Below, piece after piece: positions 4,474 through 54,038 of a stretch of DNA of 64,000 nt (within the stretch, counting starts at the first letter, position 1; each line of letters begins with the position of its first letter). The notes under the pieces are model-generated. The model saw nothing but the letters and a program-made list of their open reading frames with translations. It ran no database searches and was not told the DNA's origin. The stretch spans positions 283,082 to 347,081 of the forward strand of contig JAWLHK010000002.1 in NCBI GenBank assembly GCA_041690355.1. Reading direction: 5' to 3'. The translations under genes and the position numbers were made by a program. The stretch comes from a bacterium (lineage in GTDB: Bacteria; J088; JAWLBW01).

Positions 4474-4493
4474 GGCGGGCTGCACAGCCGCGC

Positions 4494-4710
4494 ATTCCTG
4501 ATTCCTGATTCCTGATTCTTGATTCTTGACTCCTTGAGCCGGAAGGTGAAGCGCCGAGCGCCGAGCGCTAAGCACCGAGGAAGGGCAAAGGTTTCATCGT
4601 CCTTGTCTGAAATCGTCAATTGTAAATCGTCAATCGTCAATTCCCGTGACTTGACGCGCGCCCGCCGACTCTATATTTTGACTCTTGACCCCTGACTCTC
4701 GACTCGCGAC
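4494..4710. repeat. mosaic intergenic element (ATTCCTG array 4494-4537, AGCGCCG module 4548-4580, AATCGTC array 4610-4645, GACTCTT-like array 4668-4710)
   Basis: Four distinct tandem heptamer arrays in a row between the FAD gene stop and the sterol-desaturase-family start. Confidence 0.8.
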
Positions 4711-4718
4711 GAAGAACC

Positions 4719-10431: not shown

Positions 10432-10494
10432 AGCGATGGATTCTACCATGGCGCGTCATTTCTGTAACGCGCTACTTGAGCGCCGGGCACCAGT

Positions 10495-10672
10495 CAAGCG
10501 CCGAGCGCCGAGCGCTGAGCGCCAAGGAAACAAGCACATGGGTATTTTCGGTACTTTCCGGTAAATCGTCAATCGTCAGTATGCGCAACCTCTCGCTGTC
10601 GACTCCGGCCCTGCCTTCGTCGGTCAGCTCGAGGCGAACGGGAATGTCACTCGTCACTCGTAACTCGTAACT
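10495..10672. repeat. mosaic intergenic element, forward orientation (AGCGCCG module 10495-10527, AATCGTC units 10563-10579, TCACTCG array 10647-10672)
   Basis: Same module order and internal unique sequence as the reverse-oriented element at 566-745. Confidence 0.8.
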
Positions 10673-10754
10673 TCGCGGAGCGCTCCCCCTTCCCCCCTTG
10701 GCAAGGGGACGCACTACAATAGGGAAGCGTGAACGCCGCCTCGAGGAGTTACCG

Positions 10755-11456: not shown

Positions 11457-11478
11457 GCCGGACGCCGTTCCCGGAAAC

Positions 11479-11506
11479 AAAAAAGGGCGCCTGCGGGCGC
11501 CCTTTT
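11479..11506. terminator. bidirectional intrinsic terminator between the FHA gene and grx
   Basis: aaaaaa + GC stem gggcgcc / ggcgccc with tgcg loop + tttt. Confidence 0.6.
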
Positions 11507-11526
11507 CCAACCCGTGTGCAACCGGG

Positions 11527-15328: not shown

Positions 15329-15369
15329 AAAAAAGCGGAAACCGGCCGGTCCGGTTTCCGCTTTTTTTT
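15329..15369. terminator. bidirectional intrinsic terminator
   Basis: A-run, stem gcggaaaccgg / ccggtttccgc, T8; lies between the 15012 gene and the 3' end of tRNA-Val. Confidence 0.65.
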
Positions 15370-15375
15370 CGAAGA

Positions 15376-15450
15376 TGGTGGGCGATGTAGGGATCGAACC
15401 TACGACTTCCACCGTGTGAAGGTGGCACTCTCCCGCTGAGTTAATCGCCC
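15376..15450 (-). tRNA. tRNA-Val (anticodon CAC)
   Basis: Minus-strand read GGGCGATTAACTCAGCGGGAGAGTGCCACCTTCACACGGTGGAAGTCGTAGGTTCGATCCCTACATCGCCCACCA folds as a cloverleaf: 7-bp acceptor stem, D and T arms, anticodon loop TTCACAC, encoded CCA. Confidence 0.9.
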
Positions 15451-15510
15451 GAGTGCATGCAGGAATCGAAAATTGTAGCAGCCCCTTTCGGAATGATCAA
15501 TGGGGCCGCT

Positions 15511-15649
15511 GCCAAGCGCTGAGCACCGAGCGCCCATGAGGAACGAGAAACGTGATCAAGGTTCTTGCCTGGATTCGTCACTCGTCACTCGTAACTCGTA
15601 ACTCGGCACTTGCATAAATCGTCAATCGTCAATCGTAAATTGTAAATTC
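15511..15649. repeat. mosaic intergenic element (AGCGC module 15511-15535, caaggttcttgcc 15557-15569, TCACTCG array 15573-15606, AATCGTC array 15616-15649)
   Basis: Tandem heptamers as in the other elements; the AATCGTC array overlaps the last codons of the 15622..16008 gene. Confidence 0.8.
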
Positions 15650-16008
15650 TCCGGCTCCGCCGCCGCCGCCTCGATGGTTCCGCCCGGGGCCACCAGATAG
15701 AACCCGGCATCCCCGTCACCGTACTCCCCGGACGGATCCGACAGCAGCGGCGCCTGGATGCCGAACCGGTCGCACAGCGCGCGCGCTTCGGCTGGTTCGG
15801 CCGCCACGATCAGATAGACGTTCACGAAATCTTCGAGCAGCCAGTGGGCCACGCGCGCGGCCGCGGCTTCGAGCAGGCGCTCCTGTCTCGCACGGGGAAC
15901 AATGCCGACGACCGTGTGCCCGCGGGCGAAGATTTCGGCCAGATCGATGTTCCCCCCCTTGCTCGAAGCCAGACGGCGGGCGGGAAACGGCGTGCGGACG
16001 GCAATCAT
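15622..16008 (-). CDS. hypothetical protein with degenerate thioredoxin/peroxiredoxin-like segments (no CxxC)
   Basis: 128 aa from MIAVRTP; APLLSDPSGEYGDG and FYLVAPGGTIE resemble peroxiredoxin motifs but no catalytic Cys is present; C-terminal ENLQFTIDD is encoded by the heptamer array. Confidence 0.4.
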   Translation of the reverse strand: MIAVRTPFPARRLASSKGGNIDLAEIFARGHTVVGIVPRARQERLLEAAAARVAHWLLEDFVNVYLIVAAEPAEARALCDRFGIQAPLLSDPSGEYGDGDAGFYLVAPGGTIEAAAAEPENLQFTIDD

Positions 16009-27187: not shown

Positions 27188-27280
27188 CCACCTTGTCAAT
27201 TTGGCAAGACTGCCCTAGCCTGAAACGAGAAAGCCGGGCTGCGCACTGGGGCGCGCACCGGTCGGTTTCGGGGAGGAAGC

Positions 27281-27625
27281 ATGCGGAAGATTTTCTGCGC
27301 GCTGGGGTGGTCTTTTCTTCTGGTGGCCTGCGGCACGTTCGACGGGGAACCTCCGGGGGCTTCGGGCCCGGTGTCCCTGACAGAAGTGGACGAGACCGTC
27401 ATCATCAGCCAGTCGGACGATCGATGGAGCCGGTTCGAGCTTCCCGAAGAAGACGGGGAGTGTTCGCAGGACGCCGATTGCGAAATGGGGGGCTGTTCGG
27501 CCGAAGTCTGCACGACGGTCACGACGGCCCCGGAGCTGTTCACGACCTGTAACGAACAGCACCCCGGCAATGGTTTCCGTTGCGGCTGCATCCGGTCGCA
27601 TTGCCGCTGGCAGAAATACGAATGA
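27281..27625 (+). CDS. cysteine-rich lipoprotein (hypothetical)
   Basis: 114 aa; lipobox FLLVAC; eight further Cys in the mature part; gggaggaag RBS. Confidence 0.55.
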   Translation: MRKIFCALGWSFLLVACGTFDGEPPGASGPVSLTEVDETVIISQSDDRWSRFELPEEDGECSQDADCEMGGCSAEVCTTVTTAPELFTTCNEQHPGNGFRCGCIRSHCRWQKYE

Positions 27626-27726
27626 GCGTTCGGGCCGGGCCCGAACGCTCATTCCTGATTCCTGATTCTTGATTCCTGACCGGAACGCCCAGCGACTGCC
27701 GGCTGAAGACTGCCGCCTGAAGACTG
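27620..27726. repeat. mosaic intergenic element (palindromic hairpin 27620-27654, ATTCCTG array 27651-27681, CAGTCTT-family units 27694-27726)
   Basis: Perfect palindrome tgagcgttcgggc/gcccgaacgctca overlapping the stop codon, then attcctg x4, then a duplicated ctgccgNctgaagactg. Confidence 0.75.
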
Positions 27727-30306
27727 TTATTCGTACTCGAGCGCCGAGATGATGTTCGTCTTCGCGGCCTTCCACCCCGGATAGATGCTGGCCAGCACCG
27801 AGACGACGAAGGCGAGCAGAAAGCCGCCGACGACGCTCTCGAGGGGGAACACGAACGGGGTCGTCCAGCCGATGACCTCGCGCAGCATGATCTTCGTGAT
27901 GATGGCCGTGAAGCCGACCCCCGCCAGCACACCGAAGCTTCCCGCCAGAATCCCCATGACCCCCGCCTCGTTCATGACCAGCTTCTGCAGCTGCCGGCGG
28001 GTGAAGCCGATGGCGCGCAGCATCCCCAGCTCGCGGGTGCGGTCGAGCACCGAGACCATGAGCGTGTTGATGATGCCGATGACGGCGATGATGATGGCGA
28101 TGATGTACATGACATCGGTGATGCGGAACGCCTGCTGGACGGCAGTCTGCACCTCGGTCTTGTACTCGGAGTTCGTCTGCAGCACGAGCCGGTAGTTTTT
28201 CCCGAACTTGGCCGTGATCGCATCCCGCACGGCGGCGATGTTGGCCCCCGGCTTGAGGAAGACGTCATAGCTGTCGACGCCGTTGTCCTGGAAGTACTTC
28301 TTGAAGGTCGACCGGTCCATGCCGATGACTCCCTGGTCGCTCATGTAATCCACGCGCACTCCCGCAATCGAGAAGTCGTGCGCTCCGGTGGGGGTCTTGA
28401 GGGAGACCTTGTCGCCGGCATGCAGATTGAACCGGTTCATGAAGTTCTCCGACACGTAGACTGAGTCGTTGCCGGTCACCGCGTCGTAGACCTTCTCCGC
28501 TTCGCCCTCGATCCAGATGCCCGGGCTGTACTTACGGTATTCGGGCATCTGCACGCTGTAGAGCACGATGCCCGTGCCGCCGTAGCTCTGGTTGATCATG
28601 CGGAAGCGGTTGACGTCGGCGACCCCGTCTACCTCGCGCAGAATGTCGTCGCCCAGGGTCTCGGGCATGTCGACGGCGTCGGGGCCGGGCAGGGCCGACG
28701 AGCTGCGGATGACCAGGTCGGCCGTGACCGACTGCTCGAGCCATTCGAGCACCGAGCTCTGAAAGCTGAGCATCGTACCCTTGACCGCGACGGCCAGCGA
28801 AATGCCAATCATGAGCGCGCTCACGGTCACGCTCGTGCGGCCGGGCGTACGCGTGAGGTTGTCGGCACCCAGCTTACCCTCGACGCTGAAGAGCTTGCGC
28901 AGAACCGGGCTGAAGAGGTCGCCGGCCACCACGATGAGAATCGGGGCGAGCAGCGTGAGGGCGAGAAAGCCGAGCATGCTCGATGCCGAACCGACGAAGG
29001 GATTATCGAGGAACTTCTGGGCGTACAGGCCTGCGAACTGCAGGCCGAACAGGGCGATGCCCATGTAGAAGTACTTCATGTACGCCTTGCGCTGGGTCGC
29101 CTCCATGGCCACGGGGCGCATGGCCTCGAGCGGCGACACCGTCGCGGCCTGGCGGGCCGGCGCGATGGCCGAAAGCACCGAGGTGCCGACGCCGAGCGCG
29201 ATGACGATGCCGATATGCAGCGGCGACATGGCGATCTGGTCGATGTTGATCTTGAAGTAAGCCGTGCTGATCGTCTGCGCAACGATGGACGTCAACTCGC
29301 GCGCCAGCAGAAAGCCCGAGAAGCTGCCGATGGTTGCCCCGATGAGGCCGAGCACGCCCGCCTCGACGATGAAGATGCCGCGGATCTGGGCCGCCGTCAC
29401 ACCGAGGGCGCGCATGATGCCGATCTCGCGGCGGCGCTGGGCGACGGCCATCGAGAAGGTGTTGTAGATGAGAAACATGCCGACGAAGAGCGACAGGGCG
29501 CTCATGATCGTGAGGATCTGCTGAAAGCTCTTGAGCATGTTCTCGACCTGCCCCGAGCGCGCGCCCGGATAGCCGATCTCGTACCCTTCGCCCAGCGTCT
29601 CGCGCAGACGCGAGACCACGGCCTCACGCTCTTCGGCGCCGGCGTTCGGGGCCAGGATGATGTCGATCTGATCGAGGCGCCCTTCGCGCTCGAGCACGGT
29701 CATGGCGCTGTAGACGTCCATGATCAGCAGGTTGCCGCCGAAGACCTTCGCGGCCCCTTTTTCTTCGAGAATCGCGCGCACGGTCAGCGTCTTGAGCCCC
29801 GCGCCGGTCACCAGGTTGATCGTGTCGTCCTTCTTGATGCCGTACCGGTTCGCGAGAACGTTGGTCATCAGCACGCTGTCGGGGCTGTTGAGAAACTGCA
29901 GGGCGTCGATTTCTTCGCCCTTGTGCTCGTCATCCTCAGCCGTGAAGGTGCGAAAGTCCTTGTCGGCGAAGGTGTCGACGCCGAGCAGAATGATCGTGTC
30001 TTCGGGGTTCGACTCGAGAAAGGCGCTCGTGCGGATGATCGGCGTGGCCTTGGCAACCCCTTCGACCTGGGTCACCTGCTCGTAGACGGCCTCTTCGAAG
30101 CCGCTGCGGCCGCGGCTGATCTCAATCTGCGCCCGCCCGGCGACGTTGTTGATCATCTGGCGGAAAGAGGTGAGCGTGGCGTCGTTGACGAGCATGATGC
30201 CCACGAAGACGGTGATGCCCAGGGCGATGCCGACGACGGTCAGCCCGGTGCGCAGCAGGTGAAGCGTGAAGTGGCGCAGGCTGACGTTGCGAAGGAAAAA
30301 GAGCAT
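27727..30306 (-). CDS. ABC transporter permease, FtsX-like (MacB/LolCE type)
   Basis: 859 aa with two FtsX-like TM bundles and large periplasmic domains. Confidence 0.9.
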   Translation of the reverse strand: MLFFLRNVSLRHFTLHLLRTGLTVVGIALGITVFVGIMLVNDATLTSFRQMINNVAGRAQIEISRGRSGFEEAVYEQVTQVEGVAKATPIIRTSAFLESNPEDTIILLGVDTFADKDFRTFTAEDDEHKGEEIDALQFLNSPDSVLMTNVLANRYGIKKDDTINLVTGAGLKTLTVRAILEEKGAAKVFGGNLLIMDVYSAMTVLEREGRLDQIDIILAPNAGAEEREAVVSRLRETLGEGYEIGYPGARSGQVENMLKSFQQILTIMSALSLFVGMFLIYNTFSMAVAQRRREIGIMRALGVTAAQIRGIFIVEAGVLGLIGATIGSFSGFLLARELTSIVAQTISTAYFKINIDQIAMSPLHIGIVIALGVGTSVLSAIAPARQAATVSPLEAMRPVAMEATQRKAYMKYFYMGIALFGLQFAGLYAQKFLDNPFVGSASSMLGFLALTLLAPILIVVAGDLFSPVLRKLFSVEGKLGADNLTRTPGRTSVTVSALMIGISLAVAVKGTMLSFQSSVLEWLEQSVTADLVIRSSSALPGPDAVDMPETLGDDILREVDGVADVNRFRMINQSYGGTGIVLYSVQMPEYRKYSPGIWIEGEAEKVYDAVTGNDSVYVSENFMNRFNLHAGDKVSLKTPTGAHDFSIAGVRVDYMSDQGVIGMDRSTFKKYFQDNGVDSYDVFLKPGANIAAVRDAITAKFGKNYRLVLQTNSEYKTEVQTAVQQAFRITDVMYIIAIIIAVIGIINTLMVSVLDRTRELGMLRAIGFTRRQLQKLVMNEAGVMGILAGSFGVLAGVGFTAIITKIMLREVIGWTTPFVFPLESVVGGFLLAFVVSVLASIYPGWKAAKTNIISALEYE

Positions 30307-30376: not shown

Positions 30377-31090
30377 TCAGGCCGGCTCGAATTCCTTGCG
30401 CGAAGCTTCGCGGATCTCTTCGATGAGGCCGTCCTTCACGATGACGATGCGGTCGCCCGCCTCGGCCACCTTCGGGTCGTGGGTGACGAGCACGATGGTC
30501 TGCTTGAACTCCTCGACCGTGCGGCGCAGCAGGCGCAGGATTTCGGCCCCCGTCTTCGAGTCCAGATTGCCCGTCGGCTCGTCGGCGAGCAGCAGGGCCG
30601 GGTTGTTGGCGAGGGCGCGGGCGATGGCGACGCGCTGCTGCTGTCCGCCCGAGAGTTCTTCGGGCTTGTGGCCGAGCCGGTGCTCGAGCCCGACGAGGGC
30701 GACCAGCTCCTTCACGCGCCGGTCGATGGTGGCCTTATCGACTTTTTCGAGCACGAGCGGGAGCGAGATGTTCTCTTCGACCGTCATCGTCGGCAGCAGG
30801 TTGAAGAACTGGAAGACGAAGCCGAGGCGGCGGCGGCGCAGCAGCGTCAGCTTCTGATCGCCCATTTCCTGGGTGCCCTGGCCCTCGATGACCACCTTGC
30901 CGCTCGTCGGAATGTCGAGCCCGCCGAGCAGGTGCAGCAGCGTGCTCTTTCCCGATCCGCTCGGGCCCATGATCGAGACGATCTCGCCCTTGTGGGCCTG
31001 GAGACTGACCCCCTTGAGAGCCTGCACGGCCTTGGCGCCGGTGCCGTAGGTCTTGGTCACGTTCTGGACATCAATCATTACATCGCTCAT
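30377..31090 (-). CDS. ABC transporter ATP-binding protein
   Basis: 237 aa from MSDVMIDVQN; Walker A GPSGSGKST, ABC signature LSGGQQQRV, Walker B LLLADEPT. Confidence 0.9.
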   Translation of the reverse strand: MSDVMIDVQNVTKTYGTGAKAVQALKGVSLQAHKGEIVSIMGPSGSGKSTLLHLLGGLDIPTSGKVVIEGQGTQEMGDQKLTLLRRRRLGFVFQFFNLLPTMTVEENISLPLVLEKVDKATIDRRVKELVALVGLEHRLGHKPEELSGGQQQRVAIARALANNPALLLADEPTGNLDSKTGAEILRLLRRTVEEFKQTIVLVTHDPKVAEAGDRIVIVKDGLIEEIREASRKEFEPA

Positions 31091-31350
31091 GAGCCTGCCC
31101 TTTGCGGAAAGTTGGCGGAAATCCGGAAGGGCCATTATACATGGATACCCGCCCTTAATCAACCGTGCGTTTAATTGGCGGTACGCTCCAATTCAAACAA
31201 GGTTTTCACGGAGGGGAGCTGCTGTCGGGCCGCTGGGGGGAGGCCCGTGGGGGACGAGGCATCCGCGTATCGTTAAAACGCTGTTTTGAGCCATTTTCCG
31301 CATTGACGCCGCCCAGGGGTTCCGGGTAGGGTTTGACAGGAGTTTCTACC

Positions 31351-33078
31351 ATGTCCCGTTTTTCCCTTCGGTTCCTCGCCGCGGCCGCTCTCTTAAGCGG
31401 ATGCGCTTCACAGACCTCTGTCGCCCGCCTCCGGGCCCTCCCGCCCCGCGAGAGCATCGCGGAGCACTGCCGCGAGCAGATCGGCGCGCCCCGTATCGAA
31501 CGCGTCGGCGAGCGCATCTACGCGGCGCTTGGCTACGATCTGGCCAACACGATCCTCATCCGCACCGACGACGGCAACGTCATCGTCGATCCCGGCATGA
31601 GCCCGGCCCGGGCCGCGCGCGTCCGCGAAGATCTGCTGGCCGCGGCGCCGGGACCCGTGCGCGCCGTCGTCTACACGCACAGCCATATCGATCACATCGG
31701 CGGTGCCAGCGTGTGGGTCGAGGAGGGGACCGAGATCTGGGCGACCGACGCCTTTCTGCCGCACATGCTGAAGCAGTACGGCCGGTTTCAGCGCGCCGAG
31801 GCCATGCGCGGGCAGGGGCAGTTCGGCCGTCACGTTCCCCTCGAAGCGCTCCCGTGCTCGGCCATCGGGCGGCGGGTCGACATCGACGCCGCTCTCGAGT
31901 CGGGGGTACGCGTGCCGACCCGCACCTTCTCGGGGCAGGCGTCGTTCACGATCGGCGGCGTTCGCTTCGAGCTTCGCGAGGCGCACGGCGAGACGCACGA
32001 TCAGCTCTTCGTCTGGCTTCCGGGCGAGCGGATCCTGCTGCCCGGCGACAACTTCTATCACGCTTTTCCGAACCTCTACACGATTCGCGGCACCAGCGCA
32101 CGGCCCGTCGACGTGTGGATCGAAAGCCTCGACGCCATGCGCCGCCTCGCGCCCATGGCCCTGGTACCCTCGCACACGCGGCCGGTGGTCGGCGGTGACT
32201 TGGTGGCCGGGGCGCTTCGCGATTACCGTGACGGCATCCAGTGGCTGCGCGACGACGTCGTGCGCCGGGCCAACGCGGGGATGACCGTCGAGGAGATCGT
32301 TTCTTCGGTCGGCCTTCCCCCGCATCTTGCGCAACGCCCCTTTCTCCAGGAACTCTACGGGCAGGTCGACTGGTCGGCGCGCGCCATCTACGACAACGAA
32401 CTCGGCTGGTTCGACGGCGACCCGCTGGCGCTTTATCCGCTCGCGGCCACGGAGACGGCGCGGCGCACGGTGCAGCTCATGGGCGGGAGCGAGAAGGTGC
32501 TCGCCGCTGCCCGCGAAGCGCGCGCGCAGGGAGATCCGCGTTGGGCGGCTCACCTGCTCGGCCTGCTGCGCGACGCCCGCGCAGGCGATCCCGAGATCGT
32601 CCGCGAAGAGCTCGCGCGGAGCCTCGAGGCCGTGGCCGCCGGCGTGGGCAATACGAACGGGCGCGCCTATCTGTTGGAATCGTCGGTCGCGCTCACGGAA
32701 ACCAGGAGACCGCTCCCGCGTGTGCAGCTCGATGATGCGCTGCTGGAGGGAATTCCCGTCAAGGTATTCATGACGCTCATGAGCGGCCGCCTGATCCCCG
32801 AACGGTCGGCGGCCGTCCACGAATCGGTCGTGTTCCGCTTCGGCGAGCAGCAGTTCGTGCTTACCATCCGTCGCGGCGTGGCTGAGCTGGTGGAAGGGGA
32901 ACCCCTCCCCGGCACCCCCGAGCCGCTGGCGGTCGTGCATACCGATCCGTTGACGTGGAAGCGGCTGGCGCTGCAGATCGACAGCCCGGCCGCGGCCCTG
33001 CTGTCGGGGCGGCTGCGCATCGAGGGGAGCCAGACGGGCTTTCTGGCCTTCACGAACCGCTTCGACCGCGAACTCTGA
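31351..33078 (+). CDS. metallo-beta-lactamase-fold alkyl/aryl sulfatase-like lipoprotein
   Basis: Lipobox LLSGC; MBL motif THSHIDHIGG; C-terminal SCP2-like region; aggag RBS before ATG 31351. Confidence 0.8.
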   Translation: MSRFSLRFLAAAALLSGCASQTSVARLRALPPRESIAEHCREQIGAPRIERVGERIYAALGYDLANTILIRTDDGNVIVDPGMSPARAARVREDLLAAAPGPVRAVVYTHSHIDHIGGASVWVEEGTEIWATDAFLPHMLKQYGRFQRAEAMRGQGQFGRHVPLEALPCSAIGRRVDIDAALESGVRVPTRTFSGQASFTIGGVRFELREAHGETHDQLFVWLPGERILLPGDNFYHAFPNLYTIRGTSARPVDVWIESLDAMRRLAPMALVPSHTRPVVGGDLVAGALRDYRDGIQWLRDDVVRRANAGMTVEEIVSSVGLPPHLAQRPFLQELYGQVDWSARAIYDNELGWFDGDPLALYPLAATETARRTVQLMGGSEKVLAAAREARAQGDPRWAAHLLGLLRDARAGDPEIVREELARSLEAVAAGVGNTNGRAYLLESSVALTETRRPLPRVQLDDALLEGIPVKVFMTLMSGRLIPERSAAVHESVVFRFGEQQFVLTIRRGVAELVEGEPLPGTPEPLAVVHTDPLTWKRLALQIDSPAAALLSGRLRIEGSQTGFLAFTNRFDREL

Positions 33079-33081
33079 AAA

Positions 33082-33332
33082 CAGTCTTCAGGCGTCAGTC
33101 TCCGGTCCTCAGTCGGAATTCGTCACTCGACACTCGATACCCGTCACTGAGTATTCGTCACTCGTCACTCGTCACTCACACAAAGCGCCAAGCGCTGAGC
33201 ACCGAGTGCTGACGAGGCAAGGGCGAAGTGTTTCAAGGTTCTTGCCGGAAACGCGTCACTCGTCACTCGTAACTGAACAAGGTTCTTGCCGCTCAATCGT
33301 CAATCGTCAATCGTAAATCGTCAATCGACGAG
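33082..33332. repeat. largest mosaic intergenic element (CAGTCTT-family 33082-33114, TCACTCG array 33117-33180, AGCGC module 33184-33217, caaggttcttgcc 33234-33246 and 33278-33290, TCACTCG 33251-33275, AATCGTC array 33293-33332)
   Basis: All module types in one spacer, beginning 4 bp after the sulfatase stop and ending next to a TATAAT box upstream of rseP. Confidence 0.8.
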
Positions 33333-33357
33333 TGGGGCGTAGTATAATGAGCGAATC

Positions 33358-51926: not shown

Positions 51927-54038
51927 ATGCTCTACACGCCCAAGATCTATGAAACGCAGATCGATGGCAAGACGATCCGGATTGAAACGGGTCGTATGGC
52001 CAAGCAGGCAGACGGCAGCGTGCTCGTCTCCTGTGGCGGCAGCGTCGTTCTCGTCGTTGCCGTCTCTGCCGAAAAGCCCAAGGAAGGCATCGATTTCTTT
52101 CCGCTGACCTGCAACTACCAGGAGCAGGCCTACGCCGCCGGCAAGATTCCCGGCGGGTATTTCAAGCGCGAAGGCAAGCCGCCCGAGAAGGAAGTGCTCA
52201 CGAGCCGGCTCATCGACCGCCCGCTGCGCCCGCTGTTTCCGGAAGGCTACAGCAACGAAACCCAGGTCATGGCTACGGTCATCTCGGCCGACACCGAGAA
52301 TGATACGGACGTGCTCGCCATGATCGGCGCTTCGGCCTGCCTGACGATTTCGAACATCCCGTTTCACGGACCGATCGCGGCCGTGCGCGTGGGGCGTGTC
52401 GACGGCAAGCTGGTGGCCTACCCGACGCGCTCGCAGCTGAAGACCAGCGACATGAACATCGTCCTGGCCGCCAGCAAGGAGTCGCTCGTCATGGTCGAAG
52501 GGGGCGCCCAGTTCGTTCCCGAAGCCGACGTGCTCGCCGCGCTGGAGTTCGGCCACAAGTCGATTCAGCCGCTCATCGAGCTGCAGGAGAAGATGCAGGC
52601 CGACGTGGGCCGCCCGAAGCGCGAATTCTCGACCAAGACCTTCGATAAGGAGTGGGTCGACAAGGTGCGCCCGTTCGCCGAAGCCAAACTTCGCGATGCC
52701 TTCCAGACGGCCGACAAGGCCGAACGCCGCGGCAAGCTGAGCGCCATCGGCGAAGAGGTGCTCGCGCACTTTGCGGGAACTGAAGACACCGCCGCAAACG
52801 CCGGCGAAGTCAAGGCCGCCTTCGAAGAAGTCAAGTGGCGCATCATGCGCCTGCTGATCAAGGAAGGCAAGCGCATCGACGGCCGCGGGCTCAAGGACAT
52901 CCGTCCCATCGTCTGCGAAGTCGGCGTGCTCCCGCGCGCCCATGGTTCGTCGCTGTTCACGCGCGGCGAAACCCAGGCGCTCGTGGCCGCCACGCTCGGT
53001 ACCAGCGAAGACGCGCAGTGGATTGACACGCTGGAAGGCGACTTCCAGAAAACGTTCATGCTCCACTACAACTTTCCCGCCTACTCGGTGGGCGAGGTGC
53101 GTCGGCTGGCCCCTCCGGGCCGCCGCGAAATCGGCCACGGCGCGCTGGCCGAACGGGCCGTGCGTCCGGTGCTGAACCAGGAAGAGCTCCCCTACACGAT
53201 CCGCATCGTGAGCGACATTCTCGAATCGAACGGTTCGAGCTCGATGGCCTCGGTCTGCGGCGCGACCTTGAGCCTGCTCGACGCCGGCATCAAGATCAAG
53301 GCGCCGGTGGCCGGCATCGCGATGGGACTCATCAAGGAAGACGACCAGTTCATGGTGCTCTCCGACATCCTCGGCGACGAGGACCATCTGGGGGACATGG
53401 ACTTCAAGGTCTGCGGCACGCGCGAAGGGATCACGGCCCTGCAGATGGACATCAAGGTCACCGGCGTGACCGGAGCCATCATGCAGCAGGCGCTCGACCA
53501 GGCGCGCGAAGGCCGTCTGCACATCCTGGGCAAGATGGCCGAGGCGCTGTCCGAACCGCGTCCCGAGCTCTCGCCCTATGCACCGCGCCTCACGACGATT
53601 AAGATCAACCCCGACAGGATCCGGGACGTCATCGGCTCGGGCGGCAAGACCATTCGCGGTATCGTCGCCGAAACCGGCGTCAAGATCGACGTCGAAGATG
53701 ATGGCACCGTGACGATCTTCTCGGCCGACGCCGACAGCATGCGCCGGGCGGTTCAGATCGTCAAGAACCTCACCGAAGAGGCCGAGGTCGGCGCTCTGTA
53801 CGTGGGCAAGGTGCGCAAGATCATGGACTTCGGCGCCTTCGTCGAGATTCTCCCCGGAACCGACGGACTCGTTCACATCTCGCAGCTGTCGCACGAACGT
53901 GTGGCGTCGGTGAGCGATGTGCTGAAAGAGGGTGACGAAATACTGGTGAAGGTGCTCGGCATCGACAACGCAGGCAAGATCAAGCTCTCCCGCAAGGAGG
54001 CGCTGGACGCTAATCCGGAGCACGCCGTCAACCGGTAA
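51927..54038 (+). CDS. pnp: polynucleotide phosphorylase
   Basis: 703 aa; two RNase PH domains, KH and S1 domains. Confidence 0.95.

Follow-up and report, generated by a model that had tools for sequence, protein, structure and literature searches.

A perfect palindromic hairpin and heptanucleotide repeat arrays in the spacer between convergent lipoprotein and ABC permease genes

Bidirectional intrinsic terminators are single symmetric GC-rich hairpins that lie in short convergent spacers, with an A-rich and a U-rich side. For high-GC bacteria such as mycobacteria, hairpin terminators lacking a U-tract ('I-shaped' terminators) have been proposed, and their efficiency is disputed. The REP/BIME elements of enterobacteria are extragenic palindromes as well; they often lie between convergent genes, form mosaics with other motifs and are multi-copy by definition. 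As for tandem repeats, heptanucleotides are over-represented in many bacterial genomes and have been attributed to polymerase slippage, according to the passages of PMC4679880 and PMC4692102 that summarise Mrazek 2007. The STRR sequences of the cyanobacteria Calothrix and Nostoc, as cited in PMC4692102, are tandem 7-nt units of several families, intergenic and present in many copies, and heptamer repeats are reported in a preprint to affect expression in Nostoc (10.1101/2022.06.06.494920). Intergenic arrays of two to six units are likewise described for TAACTGA in marine Beggiatoaceae (PMC4679880) and for GGGAATC in Xanthomonas (PMC4692102); their phylogenetic distribution is sporadic and either slippage or regulator binding is proposed.

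The spacer described here lies in a window of 64 kb (the whole 64,000-nt stretch of DNA that was analysed) and separates two convergent genes by 101 bases, which hold one very strong hairpin and two runs of 7-base tandem repeats. Like a bidirectional intrinsic terminator, it combines a single symmetric GC-rich hairpin with A-rich and U-rich sides in a short convergent spacer, but here both tracts are degenerate, the A-tract is coding, the stem overlaps a stop codon and the place of the plus-strand U-tract is taken by an ATTCCTG heptamer array. It resembles the I-shaped terminators in having a strong, GC-rich stem but no clean run of U, especially on the plus strand, and in lying in a genome of 65% GC. 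Unlike REP/BIME elements, the palindrome is single-copy in the data searched. The hairpin is most likely a transcription stop signal common to both genes, and we read the spacer as holding two unrelated things, a shared 3'-end hairpin and heptanucleotide simple-sequence repeats (SSRs). The spacer is thus largely ordinary, with repeats of a kind known from many bacteria.

The hairpin, its tails and its orthologous positions

The initial annotation placed the hairpin between convergent genes, and the open reading frames bear this out. On the plus strand, positions 27281–27625 encode a 114-aa Cys-rich lipoprotein that ends in a TGA at 27623–27625. Its product is identical to the 114-aa database protein P0001, which bears the domain Heavy_Cys_CGP (PF27854), and its N-terminus, ...LLVACG, reads as a lipobox. 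Upstream of this gene, at 27200–27225, stands the motif TTTGGCAAG...CCTAG, which is kept at positions 1158–1185 of L001, a 54%-identical orthologous locus, and may be a promoter or a regulator site. On the minus strand, positions 27727–30306 encode an 859-aa ABC permease of the FtsX/MacB type (Pfam matches at 1.7e-40 to FtsX and at 1.2e-25 to MacB_PCD), with its stop codon TAA at 27727–27729. Its operon partner is an ABC ATPase gene at 30377–31162 on the same strand, so that the permease gene is the last of the operon. A permissive Rfam scan of 27300–28000 returned nothing beyond generic hairpin matches far below threshold, and at gathering thresholds the sole Rfam match in the 64-kb window is one tRNA. 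Cumulative GC skew over the window gives a weak signal, climbing until about 30–42 kb and then dropping; a replication terminus or origin in the window is not clearly backed by gene orientation.

Folding identified the hairpin at 27620–27654. Its arms, GAATGAGCGTTCGGGC (27620–27635) and GCCCGAACGCTCATTC (27639–27654), pair without mismatch over 16 bp around the loop CGG (27636–27638). For either strand the predicted folding energy is -29.3 kcal/mol (z about -7.1), and none of 200 shuffled sequences was as stable. The initial annotation had described a perfect 13-bp stem including the TGA of the lipoprotein gene; the stem is indeed perfect and the TGA does fall within its 5' arm, but its length is 16 bp. 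The distance from the permease stop to the hairpin is 72 nt. Among gene 3' ends in the window this hairpin ranks as the most stable, and it is the sole long near-perfect inverted repeat with a short loop across the 64 kb. Whether the palindrome recurs had been left to a search. It proved to be unique, with no second copy in the 64-kb window at up to three mismatches and no exact match, with the loop left free, among 241 million metagenome records, and being single-copy in these data it is very probably not a dispersed repeat.

The two sides of the stem differ in their tails. For minus-strand transcripts, a terminator-consensus scan accepted a U-rich tail, GUAUUUCUGC, at 27610–27619 (minus strand; five T in eight), in which C, G and A break the T run. 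When the four terminal A/U-rich pairs of the stem are counted with it, the tail becomes AUUCGUAUUUCUGC; past the stem this strand reads GTATTTCTGC. In a consensus scan over 16 kb, the hairpin with this minus-strand tail was the top terminator-like site (16 pairs, 10 of them GC). The plus-strand tail is CTGATTCCTG; taken as CUGAUUCCUG, it contains four T in ten and falls below the mark of the scan. Read on the plus strand, 27610–27619 is an A-rich tract inside the codons Q-K-Y-E, and it is constrained because it codes for Q-K-Y-E-stop. With the minus-strand tail interrupted and the plus-strand tail poor, neither direction has a U-tract in the strict sense, a run of about 6–8 U directly 3' of the stem. 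The initial annotation had reported no clean U-tract, which is correct for the plus strand but overlooks the U-rich tail of the minus strand. Terminators with clean U-tracts occur elsewhere in the window, after 12259 (minus strand), in 11457–11526, at 15330–15370 and after 35876 (plus strand), so the missing U-tract is a local feature and not a habit of the genome, in contrast to the I-shaped case. Two of these, at 11457–11526 and 15330–15370, are textbook bidirectional intrinsic terminators, each with an A-tract and a T-tract around a GC stem; the one at 15330–15370 sits between a 98-aa ORF and the tRNA gene (15379–15450, minus strand).

Two features of the locus are those expected of a terminator: a stable GC-rich stem-loop follows the final gene of a transcription unit, and the orthologous spacers of relatives preserve structure rather than sequence. 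Permease orthologues are 67–76% identical, and the convergent pair of permease and small Cys-rich protein is kept in five loci (L001, L119, L120, L121 and L122), with the ABC ATPase neighbour of the permease also kept in orthologous loci. The spacers of these five loci (75–105 bp) showed no sequence likeness to that of the window. Four of the five nevertheless hold significant hairpins, unrelated in sequence (z of -2.8 in L119, -2.7 in L120, -9.1 in L121 and -4.6 in L122), while the hairpin of the L001 spacer is not significant (z -0.7). Those of L119 and L120 are textbook terminators, with an A-tract facing the small gene and, read in the sense of the permease, a T-tract (GCGCGTTTTTATTGG; CGACCGTTTTTCTTTGCG); at positions equivalent to 27610–27619 they carry the clean T-tracts TTTTTATT and TTTTTCTTT, respectively. 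The hairpin of L122 lacks any T-tract. The asymmetry of the L119 and L120 terminators recurs in the window in degenerate form. In L121 the spacer hairpin is built of inverted GACGTCA and CGTCTGA arrays. That spacer (12081–12158 of L121) folds at -71.6 kcal/mol, and a small second hairpin is also present in it.

Heptanucleotide arrays in the spacer and in other genomes

The ATTCCTG array occupies 27651–27679 on the plus strand, in sense to the lipoprotein gene, and consists of four units, one of them ATTCTTG. Tandem Repeats Finder (TRF) gave a period of 7, 4.1 copies, 90% matches and a score of 51, confirming the four ATTCCTG units of the initial annotation. A degenerate first unit, CTCATTC (27648–27654), forms the tail end of the 3' arm of the hairpin. 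The 14-mer ATTCCTGATTCCTG has seven matches in the window at up to two mismatches, against 0.25 expected. The other array, on the minus strand at 27692–27726, begins at the base next to the permease TAA and reads as the degenerate units CAGTCTT, CAGGCGG, CAGTCTT, CAGCCGG and CAGTCGC. The duplicated CAGTCTT-family unit noticed earlier, CTGCCGNCTGAAGA, was recovered at 27694–27726 with a period of 14 (2.4 copies, score 59), which reflects two alternating heptamers.

Both arrays have a counterpart in the window. A second ATTCCTG array of equal orientation lies at 4494–4534, 20 nt past another stop codon, and its adjacent hairpin is insignificant (z -0.6). The 20-mer CAGTCTTCAGGCGNCAGTCT has three matches in the window against 0.02 expected, one of them at 33082, 3 nt past the stop of the plus-strand gene 31333–33078. 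ATTCCTG (4494 and 27651) and CAGTCTT (33082 and 27726) thus occur twice each, always in sense orientation and 0–25 nt past a stop codon. Under a uniform criterion the window contains 12 period-7 arrays, against none or one for each of the periods 5, 6 and 8–11, and the clear period-7 arrays are all intergenic by crude gene calls. Five unit families are represented (AATCGTC, ACTCGTC, AGCGCCG, ATTCCTG and CAGTCTT).

The repeats extend well beyond this lineage. When 185,579 species genomes were scanned with ATTCCTGATTCCTGATTCNTG, at least 116 loci in many phyla matched, at GC contents of 30–72%; those listed include Acidobacteriota, Gemmatimonadales, Planctomycetes, Verrucomicrobia, Patescibacteria, cyanobacteria and Rhodocyclaceae. 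Among the ATTCCTGATTCCTGATTCNTG matches listed, perfect arrays of at least three copies numbered 172 for period 7 and at most 20 for any other period. A search of a plasmid database with the spacer matched only the ATTCCTG array of an Anabaena plasmid. By crude ORF calls among the matches listed, ATTCCTG arrays of other genomes lie in 19 convergent and six divergent spacers, and those in co-directional spacers are sense in 21 cases and antisense in nine. These counts are weak hints: they fit a role in the 3' UTR and equally fit better tolerance away from promoters. The flanks of 113 ATTCCTG arrays among the matches listed from other genomes are on average unstructured, the median z being about 0 and some 10% of the values falling below -2.

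The 20-mer CAGTCTTCAGGCGNCAGTCT was found in 19 metagenome contigs. At about seven distinct loci, the two copies of the window included, a CAGTCTT-type array begins between -3 and +4 nt from a stop codon, often with its inverted complement after it. In the soil metagenome contigs L125, L128 and L134/L139/L141, direct and inverted CAGTCNN/NNGACTG arrays start from the stop codon and jointly form long hairpins.

In their head-to-tail 7-nt units and their period-7-specific intergenic excess in a few families, the arrays agree at the sequence level with the known heptanucleotide SSR class (STRR/LSSR). The initial annotation had seen the ATTCCTG and CAGTCTT units correctly but missed that they belong to a widespread, period-7-specific family of intergenic repeats. 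Compared with the cyanobacterial STRR, the units are different, and the host is of a high-GC, non-cyanobacterial lineage poorly sampled in the databases searched. Beggiatoaceae and Xanthomonas genomes have one dominant unit according to the cited papers, whereas at least five unit families occur here; TAACTGA of the Beggiatoaceae lies just upstream of start codons, whereas the two arrays of the spacer lie just downstream of stops.

The arrays differ among relatives. The nearest relatives, at 67–82% protein identity, have different heptamer units; L121 and L119 carry units of other kinds and L120 and L122 none, which indicates that the arrays turn over quickly. The host lineage itself is poorly sampled: TypA has only five relatives at 77–82% identity, and the best named matches stand at 62–66% and are labelled 'bacterium', Acidobacteria, Ignavibacteriae, Bacteroidota or Geothermobacter. 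The wider worth of the locus is descriptive. An STRR-like repertoire of five or more heptamer families is present in a poorly sampled, uncultured, high-GC lineage that branches deeply. Two of the families lie directly past stop codons, and the units recur in unrelated phyla. This adds material on why it is 7-nt repeats that gather between bacterial genes and whether they have any effect in that position.

Transcript ends at the locus and competing explanations

We consider it probable that the hairpin is a bidirectional terminator of the intrinsic type that serves chiefly the ABC-transporter operon, and that the heptamers are separate, slippage-prone SSRs. On the minus strand, the transcript of ATPase and permease would pass the permease stop by 72 nt, run through the arrays, fold the hairpin clear of ribosomes and stop in the U-rich tail. 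The plus-strand 5' arm begins 3 nt ahead of the UGA, and few U follow the stem on this strand. According to PMC4824070, the terminating ribosome in E. coli represses almost entirely a terminator that lies a few bp behind a stop codon. With its 5' arm so close to the UGA, the plus-strand hairpin should be occluded by a terminating ribosome, and such occlusion combined with a poor U-tract leads us to expect weak termination on this strand, where the hairpin would chiefly bar read-through or shield the 3' end. The ATTCCTG and CAGTCTT runs would be lineage-variable, slippage-prone SSRs of the sort found in many intergenic regions of this genome. They would probably have no sequence-specific role at this locus, and we assume their origin to be neutral; they would pad the 3' UTR that separates the hairpin from the permease stop and would incidentally give a moderately U-rich plus-strand tail. 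On this account the locus would merely mark the transcript ends of the ABC-transporter operon and the small lipoprotein gene. The initial annotation had suggested a non-canonical terminator or an RNA stability element, and position, stability and the orthologous hairpins, two of them canonical terminators, agree with this, mainly for the minus strand.

The main rival to intrinsic termination is a stability hairpin together with Rho, which we think possible though distinctly less probable. The hairpin would then be a protective or processing stem-loop at the 3' end, acting as a barrier to 3'-5' exonucleases (for instance the PNPase encoded at 51927–54038) or as a substrate of RNase III, and transcription would be stopped by Rho or by polymerase collision. 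Both tails being weak U-tracts, whereas the clear terminators of the genome have clean T runs, speaks for such a stem, as does the orthologous hairpin of L122 with no T-tract. Typical terminator stems are shorter than 16 perfect base pairs, which also counts in its favour. It fits less well with the textbook terminators at the matching position in L119 and L120 and with a minus-strand tail that still clears the consensus scan. The two explanations overlap in outcome because both set the 3' end at the hairpin. It seems unlikely that the heptamer arrays, with or without the hairpin, work as a 3'-UTR or DNA module offering multivalent sites in a 7-nt register to a putative protein, which would influence termination, the stability of the mRNA or how strongly neighbouring genes are expressed. 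The sense orientation of the ATTCCTG and CAGTCTT arrays right past stops at both window copies, the roughly seven loci with arrays at -3 to +4 nt from a stop, the skewed orientation of the ATTCCTG matches listed (sense over antisense, convergent over divergent) and the Nostoc preprint would all be in keeping with such a module. Yet the units are wholly different among relatives at 68–76% protein identity, some of which have none, and the arrays are degenerate; a position abutting the stop is expected if slippage grows arrays up to the coding constraint, the orientation statistics depend on crude ORF calls, and no candidate binding protein was found. A broader version, in which heptamer arrays are a widespread modular means of building or tuning gene 3' ends, perhaps read in 7-nt register by a putative RNA- or DNA-binding factor, strikes us as slightly more doubtful still. 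Sense arrays beginning at the stop codon are found in the window, in L121 and in the soil contigs L125, L128, L134 and L140; under this reading such arrays could pair with an inverted array into a terminator hairpin, or else, as in this spacer, space and flank a unique hairpin.

That the palindrome is a copy of a dispersed element of the REP/BIME or MITE type or marks where a mobile element ends, with the heptamers belonging to the element, is largely refuted and now very improbable; the initial annotation had also entertained a repeat-element end. A perfect extragenic palindrome adjoining repeats, in a window whose other intergenic regions are repeat mosaics, invites the idea, but the many similar copies that define these elements are absent from the 64-kb window and the metagenome contigs, as shown by the searches above. 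Nor do ATTCCTG arrays elsewhere generally have flanking hairpins: the array at 4494–4534 has no similar one, and the flank z of the 113 listed arrays has its median near 0. A hairpin at the orthologous position in relatives is, moreover, what a resident terminator would give. Least probable of all is that the palindrome works as DNA, whether by binding a dimeric regulator as its operator, in recombination or by forming a cruciform. The perfect dyad symmetry of 16+16 bp would suit such a site, but the 3' ends of both neighbours meet here with no promoter nearby, and the relatives' hairpins share no sequence, as suits a structure formed in RNA and not a conserved site for protein binding. Xer/dif-type sites, for their part, do not resemble a 3-nt centre with 16-bp arms. 

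Several other candidates were considered and rejected. Hairpin and ATTCCTG array do not make up a conserved composite, given the insignificant hairpin at 4494–4534 and the unstructured flanks of the 113 listed arrays. The arrays lie past both stop codons, outside promoters and reading frames, and so do not form a phase-variation switch. There are no spacers as in a CRISPR, no 6-bp core with 11-bp arms as in a dif/Xer site and no downstream gene as an attenuator would have.

Mosaic arrays upstream of genes

Seven other spacers of the window mix AATCGTC, ACTCGTC and AGCGCCG arrays in a fixed order and oriented toward the downstream gene. Mosaics in which AGCGCCG is followed by ACTCGTC and/or AATCGTC lie at 545–887, 2718–2862, 4474–4718, 10450–10697, 15500–15650 and 33079–33357; past about 34 kb of the window there are none. 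The constancy of this order (AGCGCCG first, ACTCGTC/AATCGTC second) ahead of genes is a further difference from the cyanobacterial STRR.

Inside the mosaics, the 13-mer CAAGGTTCTTGCC (CAAG-GTT-CTTG) occurs exactly at 15557–15569, 33234–33246 and 33278–33290, and at up to two mismatches it has seven matches against 1.1 expected. The AATCGTC arrays at 2718–2748 and 2796–2826, in a spacer flanked by plus-strand genes, are inverted and separated by about 45 nt, and could fold into a long hairpin. At 33293–33357 and 545–600, AATCGTC/ACTCGTC arrays stop about 10–25 nt upstream of TATAAT-like boxes, which stand only about 10–15 nt ahead of start codons. This spacing suggests that the arrays at these two places abut short-leader promoters.
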